64,000 nucleotides of DNA from a candidate division WOR-1 bacterium RIFOXYB2_FULL_37_13 (lineage in GTDB: Bacteria > Margulisbacteria > WOR-1 > XYC2-FULL-46-14 > XYC2-FULL-37-10): assembly GCA_001771535.1 (NCBI GenBank), contig MEUB01000027.1:20601-84600 (forward strand), in the 5' to 3' direction. The notes beneath the pieces were generated by a model, which saw only the letters and a program-made list of their open reading frames with translations, was not told the DNA's origin and did not search any database. Shown one piece after another: positions 1 through 9,515 of the stretch. Numbering within the stretch: position 1 is the first letter of the stretch; every line of letters starts with the position of its first letter. Position numbers and translations under genes: made by a program.

Positions 1-320
1 ATGATTGGTCTGGCAAGTTGATACTCGCCATTTATAAAAGTTAAAACAATTAAAATAGAAGAAGCAAACAAAACAGTTAAAAAAACACCTATCAATTCAT
101 CTAAATATAATAAAAAACCCTTTTTGGTTTTATACATTGAAAAAAAATTGAAAGACAAAACATAAACAATAGTTATGGCAAGCAAATAATTGGAATATTG
201 ATGGATAGGTGCGGACAAAAAATTAGACCAAGTTAAGCTGTCAAATCTTATAAGATAAGAAATTATAAAAGATGAAATCACAAAAATAACATCTAAAATT
301 ATTCTAATAATTATAAACAT
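1..320 (-). CDS. Partial CDS (N-terminus only; gene continues beyond window start): polytopic membrane N-terminal region typical of polyprenyl glycosylphosphotransferase (WbaP/WcaJ-like initiating sugar transferase)
   Basis: Manual reverse translation from ATG at 320: MFIIIRIILDVIFVISSFIISYLIRFDSLTWSNFLSAPIHQYSNYLLAITIVYVLSFNFFSMYKTKKGF... Hydrophobic helices separated by an RFD motif, as in Bac_transf N-terminal regions. Overlaps the stop of the preceding gene (ATGTTTATAA). Confidence 0.4.
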   Translation of the reverse strand, partial: MFIIIRIILDVIFVISSFIISYLIRFDSLTWSNFLSAPIHQYSNYLLAITIVYVLSFNFFSMYKTKKGFLLYLDELIGVFLTVLFASSILIVLTFINGEYQLARPI

Positions 321-1276
321 AAATTGTCCCAATATTTTAACACATCTTTTAACGTTTGTTCGAACAAAATAGAAGGCTGCCATCCTATTTCCTTGTTTAT
401 TTTATCGTTTGAACCTATGATAATCTTATAATCATTCGGCCGCAAAAGTTTTTTATCAATTTCTATTGAAATTTCAAGACCAAGCATTTGCGCAAATTTT
501 TCAATAATTTCTCTTAGGGAAATTCCCTTGCCGCTGCATATATTATATATTTCTCCGGGTTTTCCTTTTTCAAACAACTCAAAATAAGCTCTTACAACAT
601 CCCTAACATCCGTAAAATCTCTTACAACGTCAACATTTCCAGTATGAAGTATTGCCTTTTTCAATCCTTGAGCTTTAAATTGAACTAATTGTCTAGCAAA
701 AGATGGAATTACAAAGGTATCTCTTTGGCCTGAGCCCATATGGTTAAAAGATCTCGTCATCATTATGTCAAGATTAAAGCCAGAAACATATATCTTCGAT
801 AAAAGCTCTTGTGATACACGCGCTACAGCATAAGGGCTTGACGGTTTAAGCTCATATGTTTCTTTAAGAGGCAAATCCTTTTCATCAAAATCTCCATATT
901 CTTCTGATGAGCCTATAGATAAAATTCTCGATTTCAACTTTAACTCTCGAACGCTCTCAATAAGATTAAGAAAAATATTCGTGTTATTTTTAAAGCTATC
1001 AACAGGATTTTGCCAGCTGAAAGCTACACTGCTAAAGGATGCTAAATGGAGAATATAATCGGGATTGAATTGGCAGAGGGCAGCTGAAAGATCATCTTTA
1101 TTTAACAAATTCAATTTCTTAAAATCGCATTTTATAGACGGGAATTTTGAAAGATCAAATTGCGGAGCCTGTAGGTCTACACCTAAAACAGATGCGCCAG
1201 GCACTACATTTTCTAAATAATCAAGAAAATGTTTTCCAACAAACCCTGAGAAGCCTGTTATAAGATATTTTTTCAT
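311..1276 (-). CDS. NAD-dependent nucleotide-sugar epimerase/dehydratase/reductase (extended SDR; GDP-6-deoxy-4-keto-hexose reductase-like)
   Basis: N-terminal Rossmann motif ITGFSGFVGKHFLDYL; YxxxK-type SDR architecture; 321 aa. Confidence 0.8.
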   Translation of the reverse strand: MKKYLITGFSGFVGKHFLDYLENVVPGASVLGVDLQAPQFDLSKFPSIKCDFKKLNLLNKDDLSAALCQFNPDYILHLASFSSVAFSWQNPVDSFKNNTNIFLNLIESVRELKLKSRILSIGSSEEYGDFDEKDLPLKETYELKPSSPYAVARVSQELLSKIYVSGFNLDIMMTRSFNHMGSGQRDTFVIPSFARQLVQFKAQGLKKAILHTGNVDVVRDFTDVRDVVRAYFELFEKGKPGEIYNICSGKGISLREIIEKFAQMLGLEISIEIDKKLLRPNDYKIIIGSNDKINKEIGWQPSILFEQTLKDVLKYWDNLCL

Positions 1277-1279
1277 ACA

Positions 1280-2701
1280 TCAAACCAATAGAACATATTG
1301 CCATGGAACTTTTACGATGTTTTGCTCTTTATCAAAATACAGCTCTTCAGAACAAAAAATCACGCCATAATCGCATTTTTTTTTATCCATAGTAAATAGA
1401 GCCTGTTTTATCCCTTTATTGCCGGCTGCAACTTCTATGGCAATCTTTTTCCTTGGGAAACCCAAAATAAAATCAGCCCCTCCATCGGAAGAATCATAAG
1501 ACAAAGAAAAATCTCCATATTTTGGAATAAATCTTTGGAAACAAAGAACTGCTAAATCTTCAAATAAACTTCCTTGATAATCATCGAGCAGTTTAGAGCT
1601 GTCTAATGAATTTAAAAAGAAACTTCTAAATGCCGGAGTTGCAAATAAATATTTAGAAGGTTTTCTTACTTGAGAATAATGAGAGCCATGAGGGGCTACG
1701 CGAATTAATACCCCAGCTTTACATAAAGCCATTAGAACTGAAGAAAGAGTTTCTTTCCTCATCTCAACAGCGCAACTCAAATGAGTTAAGCTAACACTAA
1801 TTGAGTCAGAAATAAGATACAAAATTCTTTCGACTTTACTGATAGTTTCAACTTCAAATCTTCCAAGCAATGGAAGATCAAACGAGATGATTTTATCTAT
1901 CATCTGGCCAATATATTCATTTGAGAGTGCCTCATTTTCAGATTGAATTGTAAAAGGAAGTGTTCCAAATTTCATATATTTTTTTATTTCAAATCGATCA
2001 ATTTGCAACCAATACTTTTTCACCCTGCCCTCTTCCTTTTTAAGTTCTTTGAACAATTTTTCGGCGTTATCAGAAGAAAGCAAAGCATTTGCAATATTTT
2101 CGCTAAGGTTTTCAGGCAGTAAAATATTATCCTTTATCATTTCGTATTCATGGAAATTAATCGGAAAAATATCGACAAGTTTAACTCTTCTTGATAAATC
2201 GGCATTAATTTGATCCTTTAAAAGCAAAGATGCGGAACCAGTGCATAAAACAAAAACATTCTTCGATTTGTCGTATAATGTTTTTAAAAATGCCGACCAT
2301 TTCTTGTCATAGTGTACTTCATCTAAAAACAGGAAAAACGGCTTTTTAAACTCTTCAACCGCAGAGCCCACCAGTTCTTCATAGCATTCAATTGCGTCCC
2401 ATAGCGTAACATCAAATCTTTTCACAATTTCGTCAACTGAAAGATATAGTTTTTCAGCTTGTGCATGAAAATACAGTTGAGCAAGAAGCGTTGTTTTACC
2501 TGTCCCTCTAAGCCCTGGCATTACAATAATTCTTGGTTCGTTTTTACCATTTATAAAGCTATTTATATGATTTTCTAAAACAAAATAGGCACTTCTCTTA
2601 TGAAACACCTTACCATTTACATCCCTTATATATCCCTCCAAACGGTCTTTCGAATGTAAAAGCTGGTTTTGAATATATTTTTTCAATTCCTCATTTTTCA
2701 T
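1280..2701 (-). CDS. AAA+ ATPase of the AAA_14/DUF4143 type (uncharacterised ATPase family)
   Basis: Walker A motif PGLRGTGKTTLL; Walker B-like FLFLDEVHY; long C-terminal DUF4143-like region; 473 aa. Lies between the complete epimerase gene and a partial copy of its 5' end. Confidence 0.7.
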   Translation of the reverse strand: MKNEELKKYIQNQLLHSKDRLEGYIRDVNGKVFHKRSAYFVLENHINSFINGKNEPRIIVMPGLRGTGKTTLLAQLYFHAQAEKLYLSVDEIVKRFDVTLWDAIECYEELVGSAVEEFKKPFFLFLDEVHYDKKWSAFLKTLYDKSKNVFVLCTGSASLLLKDQINADLSRRVKLVDIFPINFHEYEMIKDNILLPENLSENIANALLSSDNAEKLFKELKKEEGRVKKYWLQIDRFEIKKYMKFGTLPFTIQSENEALSNEYIGQMIDKIISFDLPLLGRFEVETISKVERILYLISDSISVSLTHLSCAVEMRKETLSSVLMALCKAGVLIRVAPHGSHYSQVRKPSKYLFATPAFRSFFLNSLDSSKLLDDYQGSLFEDLAVLCFQRFIPKYGDFSLSYDSSDGGADFILGFPRKKIAIEVAAGNKGIKQALFTMDKKKCDYGVIFCSEELYFDKEQNIVKVPWQYVLLV

Positions 2702-2785
2702 AGTTTAAAAGCCTCCAGAAATACATGCTACTGCAATAGTCCAGAAATGTCAATGCCTGGCCTATTAGTATAGTACAGCAACAAA

Positions 2786-2893
2786 TTATGGCGCCTGTAT
2801 ATCTACGGCTAACACAGATACTCCGGATTCAACATTTTCTAAATAATCAAGAAAATGCTTGCCAACAAATCCAGAAAACCCTGTTATAAGATA
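2786..2893 (-). pseudogene. Remnant of the 5' end (35 codons) of a paralogous NAD-dependent epimerase gene, followed by a stop codon
   Basis: Reverse translation gives MKKYLITGFSGFVGKHFLDYLENVESGVSVLAVDIQAP*, versus MKKYLITGFSGFVGKHFLDYLENVVPGASVLGVDLQAPQ at the start of gene 311..1276. Nucleotide similarity is about 85–90% over ~110 bp (1162–1276 versus 2782–2893). Confidence 0.65.
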
Positions 2894-2958
2894 TTTTTTC
2901 ATTTTTTACATTTTAGCGCGAACAGGAACAACCTACAAGCAAAGAGACCTTTAGAGAA

Positions 2959-6060: not shown

Positions 6061-7283
6061 GGCGTAACTCCTTTAAGCTTTAAAACTTTATTTGATTCAT
6101 TTCTACCTTTGCTAAAGTTGTAAACAAACAAATAAATGGCAAACAAAAACAATCCTGAAAAATACATATTAGACAAGCCAAACGTTCCGAGCAAAAAAGC
6201 GAACACTGCGAAGTCAATTGCAAAATATCCTCTATCTTGAGCGTATATTTTTATTAATAAATAAAAAAGAAAAGAATATACAATTATCGAAAGAATTATT
6301 CCTAGGTCATACAGCATAGATACAAATCCCAAATTTGCCTCTTCTCCATAGTTTGTTTTAACGTATTCGTATGATGAATTTAATCCTTTTGGCAATAATG
6401 AAATATCATTCAGCACATACATTGACCCCATAGATCTATGCGCAAAATATTCTCCACCAAAATAAACAATAAATTGGGCTCCTAATAAGAATAAAAAACT
6501 AAAAACAATAATTGCCATTGCCTTTGATCTTAAAAATTTAACAATCGTATATGTCGCTAAAAACATAAAAGCAAGAATCAAGGCGGCCTTAGAAAGGCCA
6601 ATAATTAATCCTAAAATTGTAAGGGAAAAATATTTTATATTAAATTTTTTATTAATAATAGAATAAATAATAAACAAAAACAACAAAAATATGCCCATAG
6701 GGCCAGGTTCTCTGAAAATGGATAAAGGTCGACAATATTGAAAATTATTCAAGAAAGAGAAAATCGATCCCATGAATAAAAAAGGGAACTGCTCATGCCA
6801 TGTAAATCCGGAAATAAGAGGATATAAGCCTTTAATAATTATTTTATTGAAACCCAAAAAATTATACAATATAGTTGAGATTGCAATTTGCCCTATAATG
6901 ATTTTAGAAGTGGCAAAGCATAAATTCGAAAATTTCTGCAATATCCCCTGCGATACTGGGAAAAAAATAAAAAGCAACATTATTTTTACCAATGTTTTAA
7001 TAGTAAAAACAAATGAATTATCAATAGCGGAGCCTCCAAACAATCTCCCTTCTAAACTAACCATCCCCGACTGAAGCATGCTAATTAACGCAACAAATAA
7101 GCCTAACATCAAAATAACTATAATAAATTTTGATTTTACTTTTTTAAGAACAAATATGGGAGAAATAATTATAAAAGGGAACAAAAGCAAAGTAAAAATA
7201 ATATTAAATAAATCGTCAAACATCCCGCCCGTCAAAACAAACAAAAGAAGTAAATAAAAATATGGCTTTAATTTATTAAGCAT
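6057..7283 (-). CDS. Polytopic membrane protein, O-antigen polymerase (Wzy)-like
   Basis: 408 aa with at least 10 predicted hydrophobic helices and a larger loop; sits among glycosyltransferase genes. Confidence 0.5.
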   Translation of the reverse strand: MLNKLKPYFYLLLLFVLTGGMFDDLFNIIFTLLLFPFIIISPIFVLKKVKSKFIIVILMLGLFVALISMLQSGMVSLEGRLFGGSAIDNSFVFTIKTLVKIMLLFIFFPVSQGILQKFSNLCFATSKIIIGQIAISTILYNFLGFNKIIIKGLYPLISGFTWHEQFPFLFMGSIFSFLNNFQYCRPLSIFREPGPMGIFLLFLFIIYSIINKKFNIKYFSLTILGLIIGLSKAALILAFMFLATYTIVKFLRSKAMAIIVFSFLFLLGAQFIVYFGGEYFAHRSMGSMYVLNDISLLPKGLNSSYEYVKTNYGEEANLGFVSMLYDLGIILSIIVYSFLFYLLIKIYAQDRGYFAIDFAVFAFLLGTFGLSNMYFSGLFLFAIYLFVYNFSKGRNESNKVLKLKGVTP

Positions 7284-8397
7284 TAGGCTTTTTATCTCTT
7301 AAAACATTCTCATATGTTTTTTGTGTTTGCTCCGCAGTTTTTGCCCATGTAAAATATTTCATTCGCTGAAACCCTTTTTCTATCAATTGGTTCTTCAAGC
7401 TTTTATTACATATCACTTTCTTAATACTATTCAAAATTGACACCTTATCTGTAGGGTCAAAATATTCCGCTGCGTCTCCTGCAACCTCAGGGAAACAACT
7501 TGTATTACTAATTATCACAGGACACCCACAACTAAAAGCATCCACAATAGGAATTCCAAATCCTTCATACAAGGACGGATAAACAAAGCTCTGCGCATTC
7601 CTATATAAATAGGCTAAAACACCATCAGAAAAATCATAAAAAACTATTTTTTTTTCAATATTTAATTCCTTAAACAAAGTTATCTCTTTTTTTGAAAATT
7701 CCCTGCCGCCAATACATATTAAATATAATTCCTTATCCTGAGCTAATAGAGAAGAAATGCTTTCCAAAAAAAAAGTAAAATTCTTATACAATTTCCTATC
7801 TCCAACATAAAGCAAATATTTCCCAAAAAACTCTAAATCAATTGGTTCGGCCTCAACCTGACCAAAAGAACTTCCATGATAAATTACATCTATTTTCTCA
7901 GGACTTATTGAATATATTGACTCAATATCATGCTTAGTGTTTTCTGAAACAGCTATAATCCTAGAGGCCTTTTCTAATAATATTTTCTTAAATTTAGCTG
8001 CTACATCATTTTTTTTGAACATACTACTGAATTTCTCATGAATTAAATCATGTACAGTCAAAACAAACGGATGATCCCCAATATATTTCAAAAAATAAGC
8101 ATCATAATAAGTAGGGTGAAAAACATCAAACTCTTTTTCTCTCAACTTTTTTTTGCTCATCTGAATATTAATCAAATTCATTAATTGATTTTTTTTCCAC
8201 GATTTTATAGCTTTTAAAAATGGCATATGTCTAGAGAATGGAGCTCCTTGCAAATAATTATTATTTGAAAATAATAAAGGCAAATCAAAATCAATTTGTT
8301 TATCCAAATAGAAAAAATTCATTAATTCAAAAAAATATCTGGAAATACCCCCGTAACACTGGAAAGAGAATATTTGCCCATCATAAAGAATTTTCAT
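7276..8397 (-). CDS. Glycosyltransferase family 4
   Basis: YPSLYEGFGIPIVDAFSCGCPVIISN motif. Confidence 0.8.
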   Translation of the reverse strand: MKILYDGQIFSFQCYGGISRYFFELMNFFYLDKQIDFDLPLLFSNNNYLQGAPFSRHMPFLKAIKSWKKNQLMNLINIQMSKKKLREKEFDVFHPTYYDAYFLKYIGDHPFVLTVHDLIHEKFSSMFKKNDVAAKFKKILLEKASRIIAVSENTKHDIESIYSISPEKIDVIYHGSSFGQVEAEPIDLEFFGKYLLYVGDRKLYKNFTFFLESISSLLAQDKELYLICIGGREFSKKEITLFKELNIEKKIVFYDFSDGVLAYLYRNAQSFVYPSLYEGFGIPIVDAFSCGCPVIISNTSCFPEVAGDAAEYFDPTDKVSILNSIKKVICNKSLKNQLIEKGFQRMKYFTWAKTAEQTQKTYENVLRDKKPNA

Positions 8398-9515
8398 AAC
8401 ATGCCTCGCTCAATAAATTCATTTACGCATTTTTTGATTTCATAAAACATTTTATCTTTTGAAAAACAGCTTAACCCCCTTTTGTGTCCATTAATAGCTA
8501 ATTCCATTGCCTTCTTATTGTCATACAATAAATTTATTATCTCATCCGACAATTTGGCTGCATTATTTGGCGGAACCAATAGTCCGCAATTTTCAATAAT
8601 AACTTCTGGGATACCGCCAACACGAGTCGCAATAATCGGCTTTGTTTGCATCATAGCCTCCAGCACAGCATAAGACAAACTTTCATTAAGAGATGGGACA
8701 ACAACAACATCCGACATTTCAATAAAATTTTGAACATCTTCTCTAAAACCTAAAAATAAAACACTATCGGCAATCATCAATGACAGCGCCAAGGCTCTAA
8801 GGTCATAAAGTAAACTCCCTGCCCCCACAATGATTAGCATTGCATCAGGAATTTTCTCTAACACTTTTTTGAAAGATACTATTAATACTTCTAACCCTTT
8901 TTCTGGCGCTAGCCGGCTTACACAAACAATAATCTTTTTATTATACAAATCATAATCATTTATAAAAGCTTTTATAAACAAAGATGAAAGTGGTTTTTGT
9001 TCAACTCCATGATATATTTTTCTTACTTTATCAGGATTGCACTTATATGTTGAGATTGCAATGTCAGCAACATATTTAGAAGGACAAATCAATCGGCCTA
9101 TCCTACTGAAAAGATTTTGTGCTATAAATCTTCTCAATAAGACACCTATTTTTTCGCATTTGTTAGGAAGTTCTGCTGCATGCAAAAAACCTATAGTCTT
9201 TCTAAAGGCAAAAAAGGCAGCAATTGCGCCATGCTGGCAAGAAAACGTATTTCTAAAGTTTATAAAAACAATGTCTGGAGATATCTTAAGAAAAAAAATC
9301 AATAATTGCAAAAAACTTAAAAAATCAAAAACACTCTTTGGTCGTATCTTAATAATTTCTACGCCTGTTTTTTTTTCTGCTTCACCAAAAGCTTTAAACG
9401 TTGAACAAACTACATACAACTTATTTTTTTCTGAGCAAAAGCCAGAAACAATATCATTGAGATATTTCTCTGCTCCACCATATTCAAGTGAATCACTATA
9501 AAATATTATTTTCAT
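8394..9515 (-). CDS. Glycosyltransferase family 4
   Basis: GT-B layout with C-terminal VVPSLNESLSYAVLEAMMQTKPIIATRVGGIPEV. Confidence 0.75.
   Translation of the reverse strand: MKIIFYSDSLEYGGAEKYLNDIVSGFCSEKNKLYVVCSTFKAFGEAEKKTGVEIIKIRPKSVFDFLSFLQLLIFFLKISPDIVFINFRNTFSCQHGAIAAFFAFRKTIGFLHAAELPNKCEKIGVLLRRFIAQNLFSRIGRLICPSKYVADIAISTYKCNPDKVRKIYHGVEQKPLSSLFIKAFINDYDLYNKKIIVCVSRLAPEKGLEVLIVSFKKVLEKIPDAMLIIVGAGSLLYDLRALALSLMIADSVLFLGFREDVQNFIEMSDVVVVPSLNESLSYAVLEAMMQTKPIIATRVGGIPEVIIENCGLLVPPNNAAKLSDEIINLLYDNKKAMELAINGHKRGLSCFSKDKMFYEIKKCVNEFIERGML

Follow-up and report, generated by a model that had tools for sequence, protein, structure and literature searches.

A single-gene cassette carrying an ATPase gene with its own leader lies between two copies of the 5' end of a sugar-nucleotide epimerase gene in a 64-kb stretch of DNA, below called the window, from a candidate division WOR-1 (Saganbacteria) bacterium of Rifle groundwater. 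All coordinates without a locus number refer to this window. One copy begins the complete epimerase gene, a member of the short-chain dehydrogenase/reductase (SDR) family; the other, upstream copy is a 38-codon stump. The explanation that we prefer, with moderate confidence and from sequence comparison, is that a compact, horizontally mobile candidate defence cassette occupies a joint formed by recombination, at which two diverged versions of the epimerase gene meet, the stump being what is left of the displaced one.

Repeat search found one direct-repeat family at this place, 121 nt long with 83% identity and a spacing of 1626, and the pairwise alignment is concordant (Table 1). The identity is higher, ~91%, within the first 76 nt. 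This pair is the sole direct repeat of at least 40 nt in the 64 kb, and its alignment score is ~50 standard deviations above that of shuffled controls (z ~50). The original prediction, which was made from the same DNA, had placed the copies at about 1162-1276 and 2782-2893 with 85-90% identity. The repeat is real, but these coordinates are slightly short, as the upstream copy runs to an ATG at 2902, and the identity is lower. The peptide followed by a stop that had been read from this copy corresponds exactly to an open reading frame (ORF) ending in TAA, and the ATPase gene does lie between the copies, 80 nt after the upstream one and with 3 nt between it and the ATG that starts the full gene. 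The insert between the repeats, 1,505 nt in all, consists of the 80-nt leader, the ATPase ORF and these 3 nt, and contains no second ORF. The predicted absence of transposases and inverted repeats was confirmed: Pfam and further profile searches of the one ORF of the insert detected no transposase or recombinase domain, repeat search detected no terminal inverted repeats at the insert, and no site-specific recombinase is encoded between the repeats or among the neighbouring genes of locus L001. A unit of 1,805 nt is exactly the same in 15 loci from different samples, taken from ENA, JGI, NCBI and Logan assemblies. It is thus fixed in that population and no artefact of assembly. Exact-protein look-ups found the same arrangement in all 19-21 contigs carrying the ATPase or epimerase proteins.

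The product of the full epimerase gene matches the Pfam domains GDP_Man_Dehyd (191.7 bits) and Epimerase (155.1 bits) and belongs to the GDP-mannose dehydratase/reductase-type epimerase family. Its homologues, the best of them 62% identical, are named GDP-4-dehydro-6-deoxy-D-mannose reductase or GDP-mannose 4,6-dehydratase; all scores of NCBIfam equivalog models for the product are below their cut-offs. Both copies encode the N-terminal GxxGxxG motif as TGFSGFVG, and the ORF of the stump stops at TAA where the full gene reads CAA. Over the 38 shared codons, 12 codons differ synonymously and five non-synonymously, in addition to the change of CAA to TAA; codons 1-24 contain seven synonymous changes and no non-synonymous ones. 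By the Nei-Gojobori method this gives 15 synonymous and five non-synonymous differences, with proportions of differing synonymous sites (pS) of 0.57 and non-synonymous sites (pN) of 0.06, pN/pS being 0.10. If the stump had been copied in place and then drifted neutrally, the functional copy changing at synonymous positions only, at least 62% of the differences would be non-synonymous. The observed fraction is 25% (P=0.0007). Moreover, the replacement residues of the stump are also seen in functional homologues, for example E-S-G at residues 25-27.

By this pattern of substitution, the two 5' ends diverged while the genes were working, and they stem from different, though fairly close, lineages or copies of one gene. 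Since this divergence would precede the joining, the 121-nt repeat is not a target-site duplication. The comparison supports the reading of the 38-codon ORF as what remains of a truncated epimerase gene, one that once worked and was distinct from the present gene. The stump agrees with the resident gene in 33 of 38 residues, and the next best among the 120 best homologues agrees in 27 of 38. A phmmer search of 1.84 billion representatives gave no match to the stump closer than 71% apart from the resident gene, and a word-based search with a 40-aa reconstruction of the stump matched the stump ORF alone.

Similar scars recur around relatives of the ATPase. We fetched 160 homologous loci (designated by L numbers) and compared 600 nt upstream of the ATPase gene with 600 nt downstream, which was feasible for 143 loci. 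Flanking direct repeats, counted at a score of at least 18, were observed at 21 of the 143 ATPase loci versus 8 of 268 control ORFs, these being other ORFs of at least 300 aa in the same loci (Fisher test, 2e-5); several of the eight control matches are neighbouring cassettes. In nine or more independent cases it is the 5' end of the next gene, starting directly after the ATPase stop codon, that is repeated, and the upstream copy lies 170-320 nt before the ATPase ATG. The duplicated genes are, besides the SDR epimerase of the window (121 nt), a pilin-like gene (L114, 96 nt with two mismatches), a gene of a secreted protein (L098, 82 nt), hsdR (L150, 74 nt, and L037, 33 nt), a DUF488-like gene (L029/L122, 69-79 nt), another SDR gene (L139, 49 nt), a further gene (L099, 39 nt) and a gene of a MNESETR-type restriction enzyme (L016, 23 nt). 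A same-strand ORF follows the ATPase stop codon directly in 43 loci, and in eight of these a copy of its N-terminus, from residue 1, is found upstream. Elsewhere the repeated sequence is non-coding or comes from the upstream gene's 3' end (L138, 366 nt; L110, 184 nt in four copies; L151, L036, L039). Between loci the length of the repeat varies from 23 to 366 nt, and 85% of the ATPase loci have no flanking repeat. An RNA gene as the target of insertion was considered and rejected, as Rfam and ARAGORN searches detected no tRNA, tmRNA or other RNA inside the repeats of 11-14 repeat-bearing loci.

Table 1. Features at the joint between the glycosyltransferase block and the epimerase gene (window coordinates)
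Feature	Coordinates	Strand	Evidence and remarks
GT4 glycosyltransferase gene, 383 aa	2959..4110	-	Pfam Glyco_trans_1_4 and Glycos_transf_1; last gene of the low-GC glycosyltransferase block upstream of the joint
Intergenic spacer, 56 nt, between glycosyltransferase gene and stump	2903..2958	-	Not homologous to the sequence preceding the functional copy
Upstream repeat copy, displaced epimerase 5' end	2782..2902	-	Homology to the full gene stops at 2782; Pfam Epimerase, E=7e-4
ORF of 38 codons, then TAA	2786..2902	-	Within the upstream repeat copy; the last 4 nt of the repeat are 2785..2782
ATPase leader, 80 nt	2702..2781	-	Promoter scan and sequence
AAA_14 ATPase gene, 473 aa	1280..2701	-	Pfam AAA_14; PADLOC PDC-S01
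Gap of 3 nt (TGT) between ATPase stop TGA and epimerase ATG	1277..1279	-	Sequence
Downstream repeat copy, first 121 nt of the functional gene	1156..1276	-	Repeat search and alignment
Full-length SDR sugar-nucleotide enzyme gene, 321 aa, functional copy	311..1276	-	ORF; Pfam

Some of these loci also bear on the origin of the stumps. The leader, ATPase and hsdR gene of L150 form a unit collinear with seven other loci at ~71% nucleotide identity. The 74-nt hsdR stump of this locus is 92% identical to the start of hsdR in L147 and only 72% identical (50 of 69 compared nucleotides) to its own downstream copy, and so stump and unit differ in origin. The L150 pair also has the same synonymous bias as the pair in the window (P=0.0008). 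This points to a resident orthologue having been displaced at a recombination joint. The stump of L139 lies inside a longer native N-terminus (MSKDKKSSSGV-KILVTGGAG), and the downstream copy has its own ATG directly before KILVTGGAG; thus these are two versions of the gene and not a copy made in place. The functional copies of L029 and L122 are identical and the stumps different, which shows decay of the stump after the event. Finally, fragments of the MNESETR gene start, 20-70 nt in length, travel with the cassette into unrelated contexts (L016, L017, L096, L100).

The cassette itself is mobile. ATPases that are 94-99% identical occur within flanks having no detectable similarity on either side (L020/L108, L054/L056, L114/L026, L016/L017 and others). 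The DNA common to such pairs extends from 41-338 nt before the ATG, the promoter region being always retained, to between -2 and +86 nt past the stop codon, mostly no more than 12 nt. The insert in the window (80 nt, the ORF and 3 nt) falls within these extents. No fixed termini were observed within these left and right limits, nor were there short target duplications at the homology-defined ends of cassettes at 22 loci, where only chance words of 4-7 nt were seen. Compact shared segments of this kind would also result if the cassette were transferred repeatedly and its flanks were trimmed, with selection keeping the gene functional. That the ATPase gene is the arrival at the window locus is supported by its own leader, by the 51-54% identity of its nearest relatives, which come from other phyla, and by the near-identical members of its family in unrelated contexts.

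The ATPase of the window contains one Pfam domain, AAA_14 (PF13173), at residues 57-186, scoring 93.1 bits with a cut-off of 27. It had been predicted to be of the DUF4143 type: the ATPase part of this assignment holds, but DUF4143 (PF13635) is not matched by the window protein even at E<=1, being present in homologues that are 48-51% identical (P0059, 28.6 bits versus a cut-off of 28.1). Six PADLOC models of PDC-S01 match the window protein, the best with E=1.5e-29, PADLOC setting no curated cut-off for them. In an alignment of 24 sequences the Walker A motif G63-T71, the Walker B residues D127-E128, and D410, E423 and K429 are invariant. The AlphaFold2 (AF2) model has a mean pLDDT (predicted local distance difference test) of 71.6, and both the ATPase domain and a C-terminal alpha/beta domain, in which D410, E423 and K429 lie, are confident. 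A Foldseek search with this model places the N-terminal part near RuvB, clamp loader, ORC and Avs AAA+ proteins; a search of solved structures by sequence gave only marginal P-loop matches. DUF4143 is counted among the PD-(D/E)XK nuclease domains, its function being unknown (PMC3424549). The window protein is assigned to the family with AAA+, winged-helix and C-terminal DUF4143-like (PD-(D/E)XK) domains, entered in PADLOC as the candidate single-gene defence system PDC-S01. An anti-phage role of the cassette is a candidate function suggested by these matches. Literature searches for DUF4143, COG1373 and AAA_14 retrieved no experimental, functional or mobility study of the family.

Within this family the window ATPase belongs to a subfamily of 472-480 aa found mainly in Patescibacteria, and it is at most 54% identical to any known member. 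The nearest relatives are mostly from Patescibacteria, with a patchy distribution in Omnitrophota, Elusimicrobia, DPANN and Methanobacteria. On a scaffold of 2.3 kb (L176:134-1135, P0075) the first 97 codons of the ketol-acid reductoisomerase gene (IlvC) are fused to the C-terminal half of the window ATPase. It was considered as a second insertion site and rejected: since only one scaffold shows it and the join falls at a low-complexity 20-mer, AAATAAAAAAATATATGAAA, it is most likely an assembly chimera.

ATPase genes of this group are repeatedly found 3-6 nt upstream of restriction-enzyme genes (L035, L037, L143, L145, L147, L150, L153, L154, L016, L021, L028, L105, L106, L107). The adjoining enzymes are HsdR proteins of ~1,040-1,150 aa and a protein of 774-795 aa starting with MNESETRAEYIDPKL. 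This neighbourhood suggests that the two are functionally linked or that the cassette lands preferentially within restriction-modification operons.

The leader of the window ATPase contains TTGACA (2753..2748) and TAGCAT (2730..2725) separated by 17 nt, and GGAGG at 2716..2712, 10 nt ahead of the ATPase ATG. An own promoter of the ATPase gene, a check proposed with the original prediction, has a promoter-like candidate, found by a promoter scan with 10 of 12 matching positions, but as a class such matches do not exceed chance in this AT-rich region (24 found, 18.6 expected). Among 155 homologous loci the gap between the previous gene and the ATPase gene has a median of 227 nt and is 16 nt or shorter in 1% of cases, versus 36% of background gene pairs. 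Because of these long upstream gaps, the ATPase family appears to be a self-contained transcription unit, and the promoter-like site and GGAGG of the window fit this as well. The gap between the ATPase gene and the next gene resembles the background, being tight in 29% of cases versus 36% of same-strand gene pairs; special targeting of start codons was dropped as a candidate on this ground. Ahead of the epimerase ATG no Shine-Dalgarno box is visible in the 3-nt gap, and thus read-through and translational coupling are likely. Presumably, the epimerase gene is now transcribed from the ATPase promoter or an operon promoter and translated by coupling.

Two repeats of ATTTCTGGA occur in the window leader (2748..2740 and 2722..2714) and may act as an operator. 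An 89-nt leader segment folds no better than shuffled sequences (z=-0.26). The ATPase genes linked to HsdR have a conserved leader of ~140 nt (L150:3610-3790; aligned leaders of L037, L143, L147, L153 and L035), in which several TATACAAGA / TCTTGTA motifs in both orientations surround the TTGACA box. A second, partial copy of this leader is found further upstream in L153 and L035. In other subfamilies the repeated motifs differ, being TACTAACCC...GGGTATAG and, in the window, ATTTCTGGA. The repeated motifs hint at autoregulation, which might proceed through the winged-helix domain.

The joint most probably results from homology-anchored recombination, as follows. Two versions of the epimerase gene would have diverged as working genes in separate lineages before being brought together. 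The cassette, that is, the ATPase gene with its 80-nt promoter leader, would now sit inside the conserved 5' end of an SDR gene of a polysaccharide locus. The transferred DNA would have carried the cassette and a piece of the next gene, integration being anchored at the orthologue of the recipient, and the start of the resident gene would have remained as the stump. In one form of this mechanism, the cassette would arrive beside the 5' end of an orthologous epimerase gene; one crossover would take place within the conserved gene or beyond it, and the other end would be joined illegitimately, a process known as homology-facilitated illegitimate recombination. In the second form, equivalent to the first, a small circle composed of the cassette and the gene start would integrate by a single crossover. 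As a complete epimerase gene is reconstituted, the insertion would be tolerated. The spacer upstream of the stump presumably is the original upstream region of the displaced version.

All non-nested ORFs of at least 120 aa in the 64 kb are on the minus strand. The GC content of the run of glycosyltransferase genes at 4-14 kb is 0.28-0.31, compared with 0.33-0.38 beyond. Since this upstream block has the lower GC content, it and the stump could equally be the newcomer. The run includes two tandem GT4 genes of 373 aa each (7276-8397 and 8394-9515). Each repeat copy (1207-1233 and 2831-2857) contains an identical palindrome-like stretch of 27 nt, ACATTTTCT-N9-AGAAAATGT, which encodes HFLDYLEN and falls inside the longest block without mismatches between the copies (26 nt). 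This may be a coincidence of the codons used or a site where crossover is favoured. In the 3-kb contig of one sample (L010:1867-2733, P0243) the epimerase was called at 288 aa, followed by a separate ORF, which indicates that, in this assembly, the 3' part of the gene contains either a truncating variant or a sequencing error.

Several observations weigh against capture at a homologous anchor. At 83% identity over 121 nt and pS of 0.57, RecA-type recombination would be inefficient, and the homologous anchor, if any, may lie elsewhere. The GC content of the ATPase gene, 0.31-0.37, is not distinct from the surroundings. The databases searched contain no empty site, no donor and no closer relative of either epimerase version, the closest epimerase being 62% identical, and no other locus joins this ATPase to this epimerase subfamily. 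Near-identical flanking repeats of 39-366 nt, looking like fresh duplications, occur at L114, L099, L138, L110 and L151, and the stumps of L029 and L098 resemble products of neutral decay. Thus more than one process may be at work. In L110 (L110:247-5677), a 184-nt repeat that corresponds to the 3' end of a TPR-like gene occurs four times in register, the copies being 92-96% identical and the fourth 64%. They separate three consecutive single-gene cassettes, namely a classic ATPase with AAA_14 and DUF4143, a protein with Schlafen/AlbA_2 and HATPase_c_4 domains, and an ATPase of the subfamily studied here. Single crossovers that integrate again and again at one sequence would account for such an array more easily than a series of independent illegitimate joins, and its in-register repeats favour the small-circle variant.

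The L110 array looks integron-style, and no integrase is in view. In L016 (L016:3290-4870) a Fic-family gene next to the ATPase gene lies between 88-nt direct repeats that are 93% identical; seven copies of the 29-nt unit AGAAATACAAGGGCAGCCCTTTAGAGAAA, which includes a small hairpin AAGGGC-A-GCCCTT, flank this gene in addition. The repeat of L138 (2024-2389 and 4185-4550, 366 nt, ~99% identical) flanks the ATPase gene and ends 8 nt into a RhuM-like gene, whose ATG reads ATA in the upstream copy. The gene on the other side is Schlafen/AlbA_2-like by eye, and the locus looks like another cluster of solitary defence-type genes.

Part of this evidence would also suit a self-mobilising one-gene element, in which the AAA+ / winged-helix / PD-(D/E)XK protein promotes the excision and insertion of its own gene, for instance as a circle of 1.6 kb; we regard this as unlikely. 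Such a circle would comprise the promoter, the ORF and one copy of the target start, and the target gene would be rebuilt as it is by elements targeting tRNA genes or icd, only without an integrase. The structure of the window is exactly that expected from a single crossover with a circle. Near-identical cassettes with compact ends in unrelated contexts and no mobility gene nearby, the enrichment of flanking direct repeats at ATPase loci, the near-identical repeats of L114 (96 nt, two mismatches), L138 (366 nt) and L099 (39 nt), the L110 cassettes separated by one 184-nt repeat, and the invariant D410, E423 and K429 together with intact Walker motifs all agree with it. However, the ends of the cassette are not fixed (41-338 nt upstream, -2 to +86 nt downstream), there are neither terminal repeats nor short target duplications, 85% of the loci have no flanking repeat, and the compact shared segments are also produced by repeated transfer with flank trimming. 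Because unrelated genes, the Schlafen/AlbA_2 and classic AAA_14-DUF4143 genes of L110 and the Fic gene of L016, are flanked by like repeats, the ATPase is probably not needed in cis. Literature searches found no biochemical data for the family. In its broader version, to which we give about one chance in five, the subfamily would be an unrecognised one-gene mobile element, ~1.5 kb of promoter and ORF, that crosses genomes and phyla without a transposase or integrase, inserts beside or within gene starts and regenerates its target gene via a long, variable repeat of the target's end, possibly promoted by its own nuclease-ATPase.

Another possibility, somewhat less probable still, is that two tandem epimerase paralogues were once resident and that the cassette landed in the first one, deleting it from codon 40 to the end. 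Purifying selection has acted on the two 5' ends during their divergence, which is what one expects of paralogues; nothing known is nearer to the stump than the resident gene (33 of 38 residues); and polysaccharide loci commonly carry several SDR genes. On the other hand, the deletion would have to end exactly 3 nt before the ATG of the second gene, and none of the 160 loci has two full gene copies flanking the ATPase gene. A stump followed by cassette and gene is also seen where tandem paralogues would not be expected, as at hsdR, restriction-enzyme and DUF488-like genes among others, and the L150 stump comes from another lineage than the gene downstream. The original prediction had seen in the scar a second paralogue replaced or disrupted by the ATPase gene. 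The remnant and the arrival are borne out; the residence of a second paralogue in the same genome is possible but unsupported and disfavoured by the parallel cases, as the scar recurs at hsdR, DUF488-like and pilin-like genes.

We find it very improbable that the 121-nt repeat is a target-site-type duplication made in place at insertion, the upstream copy having then decayed neutrally. A direct repeat does bracket the insert immediately, some homologous loci have near-identical repeats, and the stumps of L029 and L098 are decay-like, with those of L029 and L122 differing while the functional copies are identical. This is countered in the window by pN/pS of 0.10, by the rejection of the model (P=0.0007) and by seven synonymous and no non-synonymous changes in codons 1-24. 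Moreover, repeat lengths of 23-366 nt are unlike a duplication set by a transposase, and neither a transposase nor a terminal inverted repeat is present. Chance similarity or an assembly artefact, which the metagenomic origin and the one chimeric contig with this ATPase (L176) might suggest, can be practically dismissed, given the only repeat of at least 40 nt in 64 kb, z of ~50 versus shuffles and a unit identical in 15 contigs.

The spread of solitary defence-type genes without recognisable mobility genes is poorly understood, notably in uncultivated groups, among them Patescibacteria, DPANN archaea and Saganbacteria. The window and some 20 parallel cases provide a readable scar, in which a cassette stands in a conserved gene start and the gene is regenerated from a second, diverged 5' end. 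If homology-anchored capture is the mechanism, conserved gene starts, such as those encoding Rossmann folds and HsdR N-termini, would be landing pads, and foreign genes could be admitted to operons that stay functional. Should the process be driven by the ATPase-nuclease, a new class of minimal mobile elements would be defined. For genome annotation, short N-terminal ORFs upstream of AAA_14 genes are to be regarded as displaced gene starts rather than new genes.

The family assignment follows the known COG1373 / PDC-S01 ATPases, as AAA_14 is matched well over the threshold and six PDC-S01 models are matched; the difference is that DUF4143, carried by the homologues, is not matched in the window protein. 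Transposons and insertion sequences are likewise bracketed by a direct repeat of the target sequence. Unlike them, the window insert has no transposase or terminal inverted repeat, and its repeat is 121 nt long, 17% diverged, bears a signature of coding selection and varies in length between loci. Another parallel is prophage e14 of E. coli, which brings a replacement end for icd and leaves icdC behind as a pseudogene (PMC13626634). There, too, two diverged copies of a gene end flank the element, the functional gene is reconstituted and the differences are mainly conservative or synonymous. However, e14 is 15 kb long, has a site-specific recombinase and uses the icd 3' end, whereas the window insert is 1.5 kb long, has no integrase and involves a 5' end.

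Homology-facilitated illegitimate recombination with displacement has been proposed for the arrays of type VI secretion systems (T6SS) and Rhs (PMC5361080). The scars in T6SS effector-immunity arrays of Vibrio cholerae, and those of C-terminal displacement with orphan modules in Rhs and contact-dependent inhibition (CDI) loci (PMC5361080), resemble that of the window: a module is anchored by homology in a conserved neighbour gene, the displaced fragment persists as a direct repeat, there is no gene of a recombinase, and arrays can grow by repeated events; L110, with its repeated 3' gene end, looks just alike. The fragment and the functional gene come from different lineages, as indicated by pN/pS of 0.10 in the window and by 92% versus 71% identity at L150. 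In the T6SS and Rhs systems the anchor is the 3' end of the upstream gene and the cargo is a toxin tip with an immunity gene, whereas in the window the anchor would be the downstream gene's 5' end and the cargo is one promoter-bearing ATPase gene, the mechanism being deduced from sequence. A recurrent scar of this kind has apparently gone undescribed for this ATPase family. The feature of the window is probably a displacement scar, one that differs from the known ones by its 5' end and its promoter-bearing single-gene cargo.

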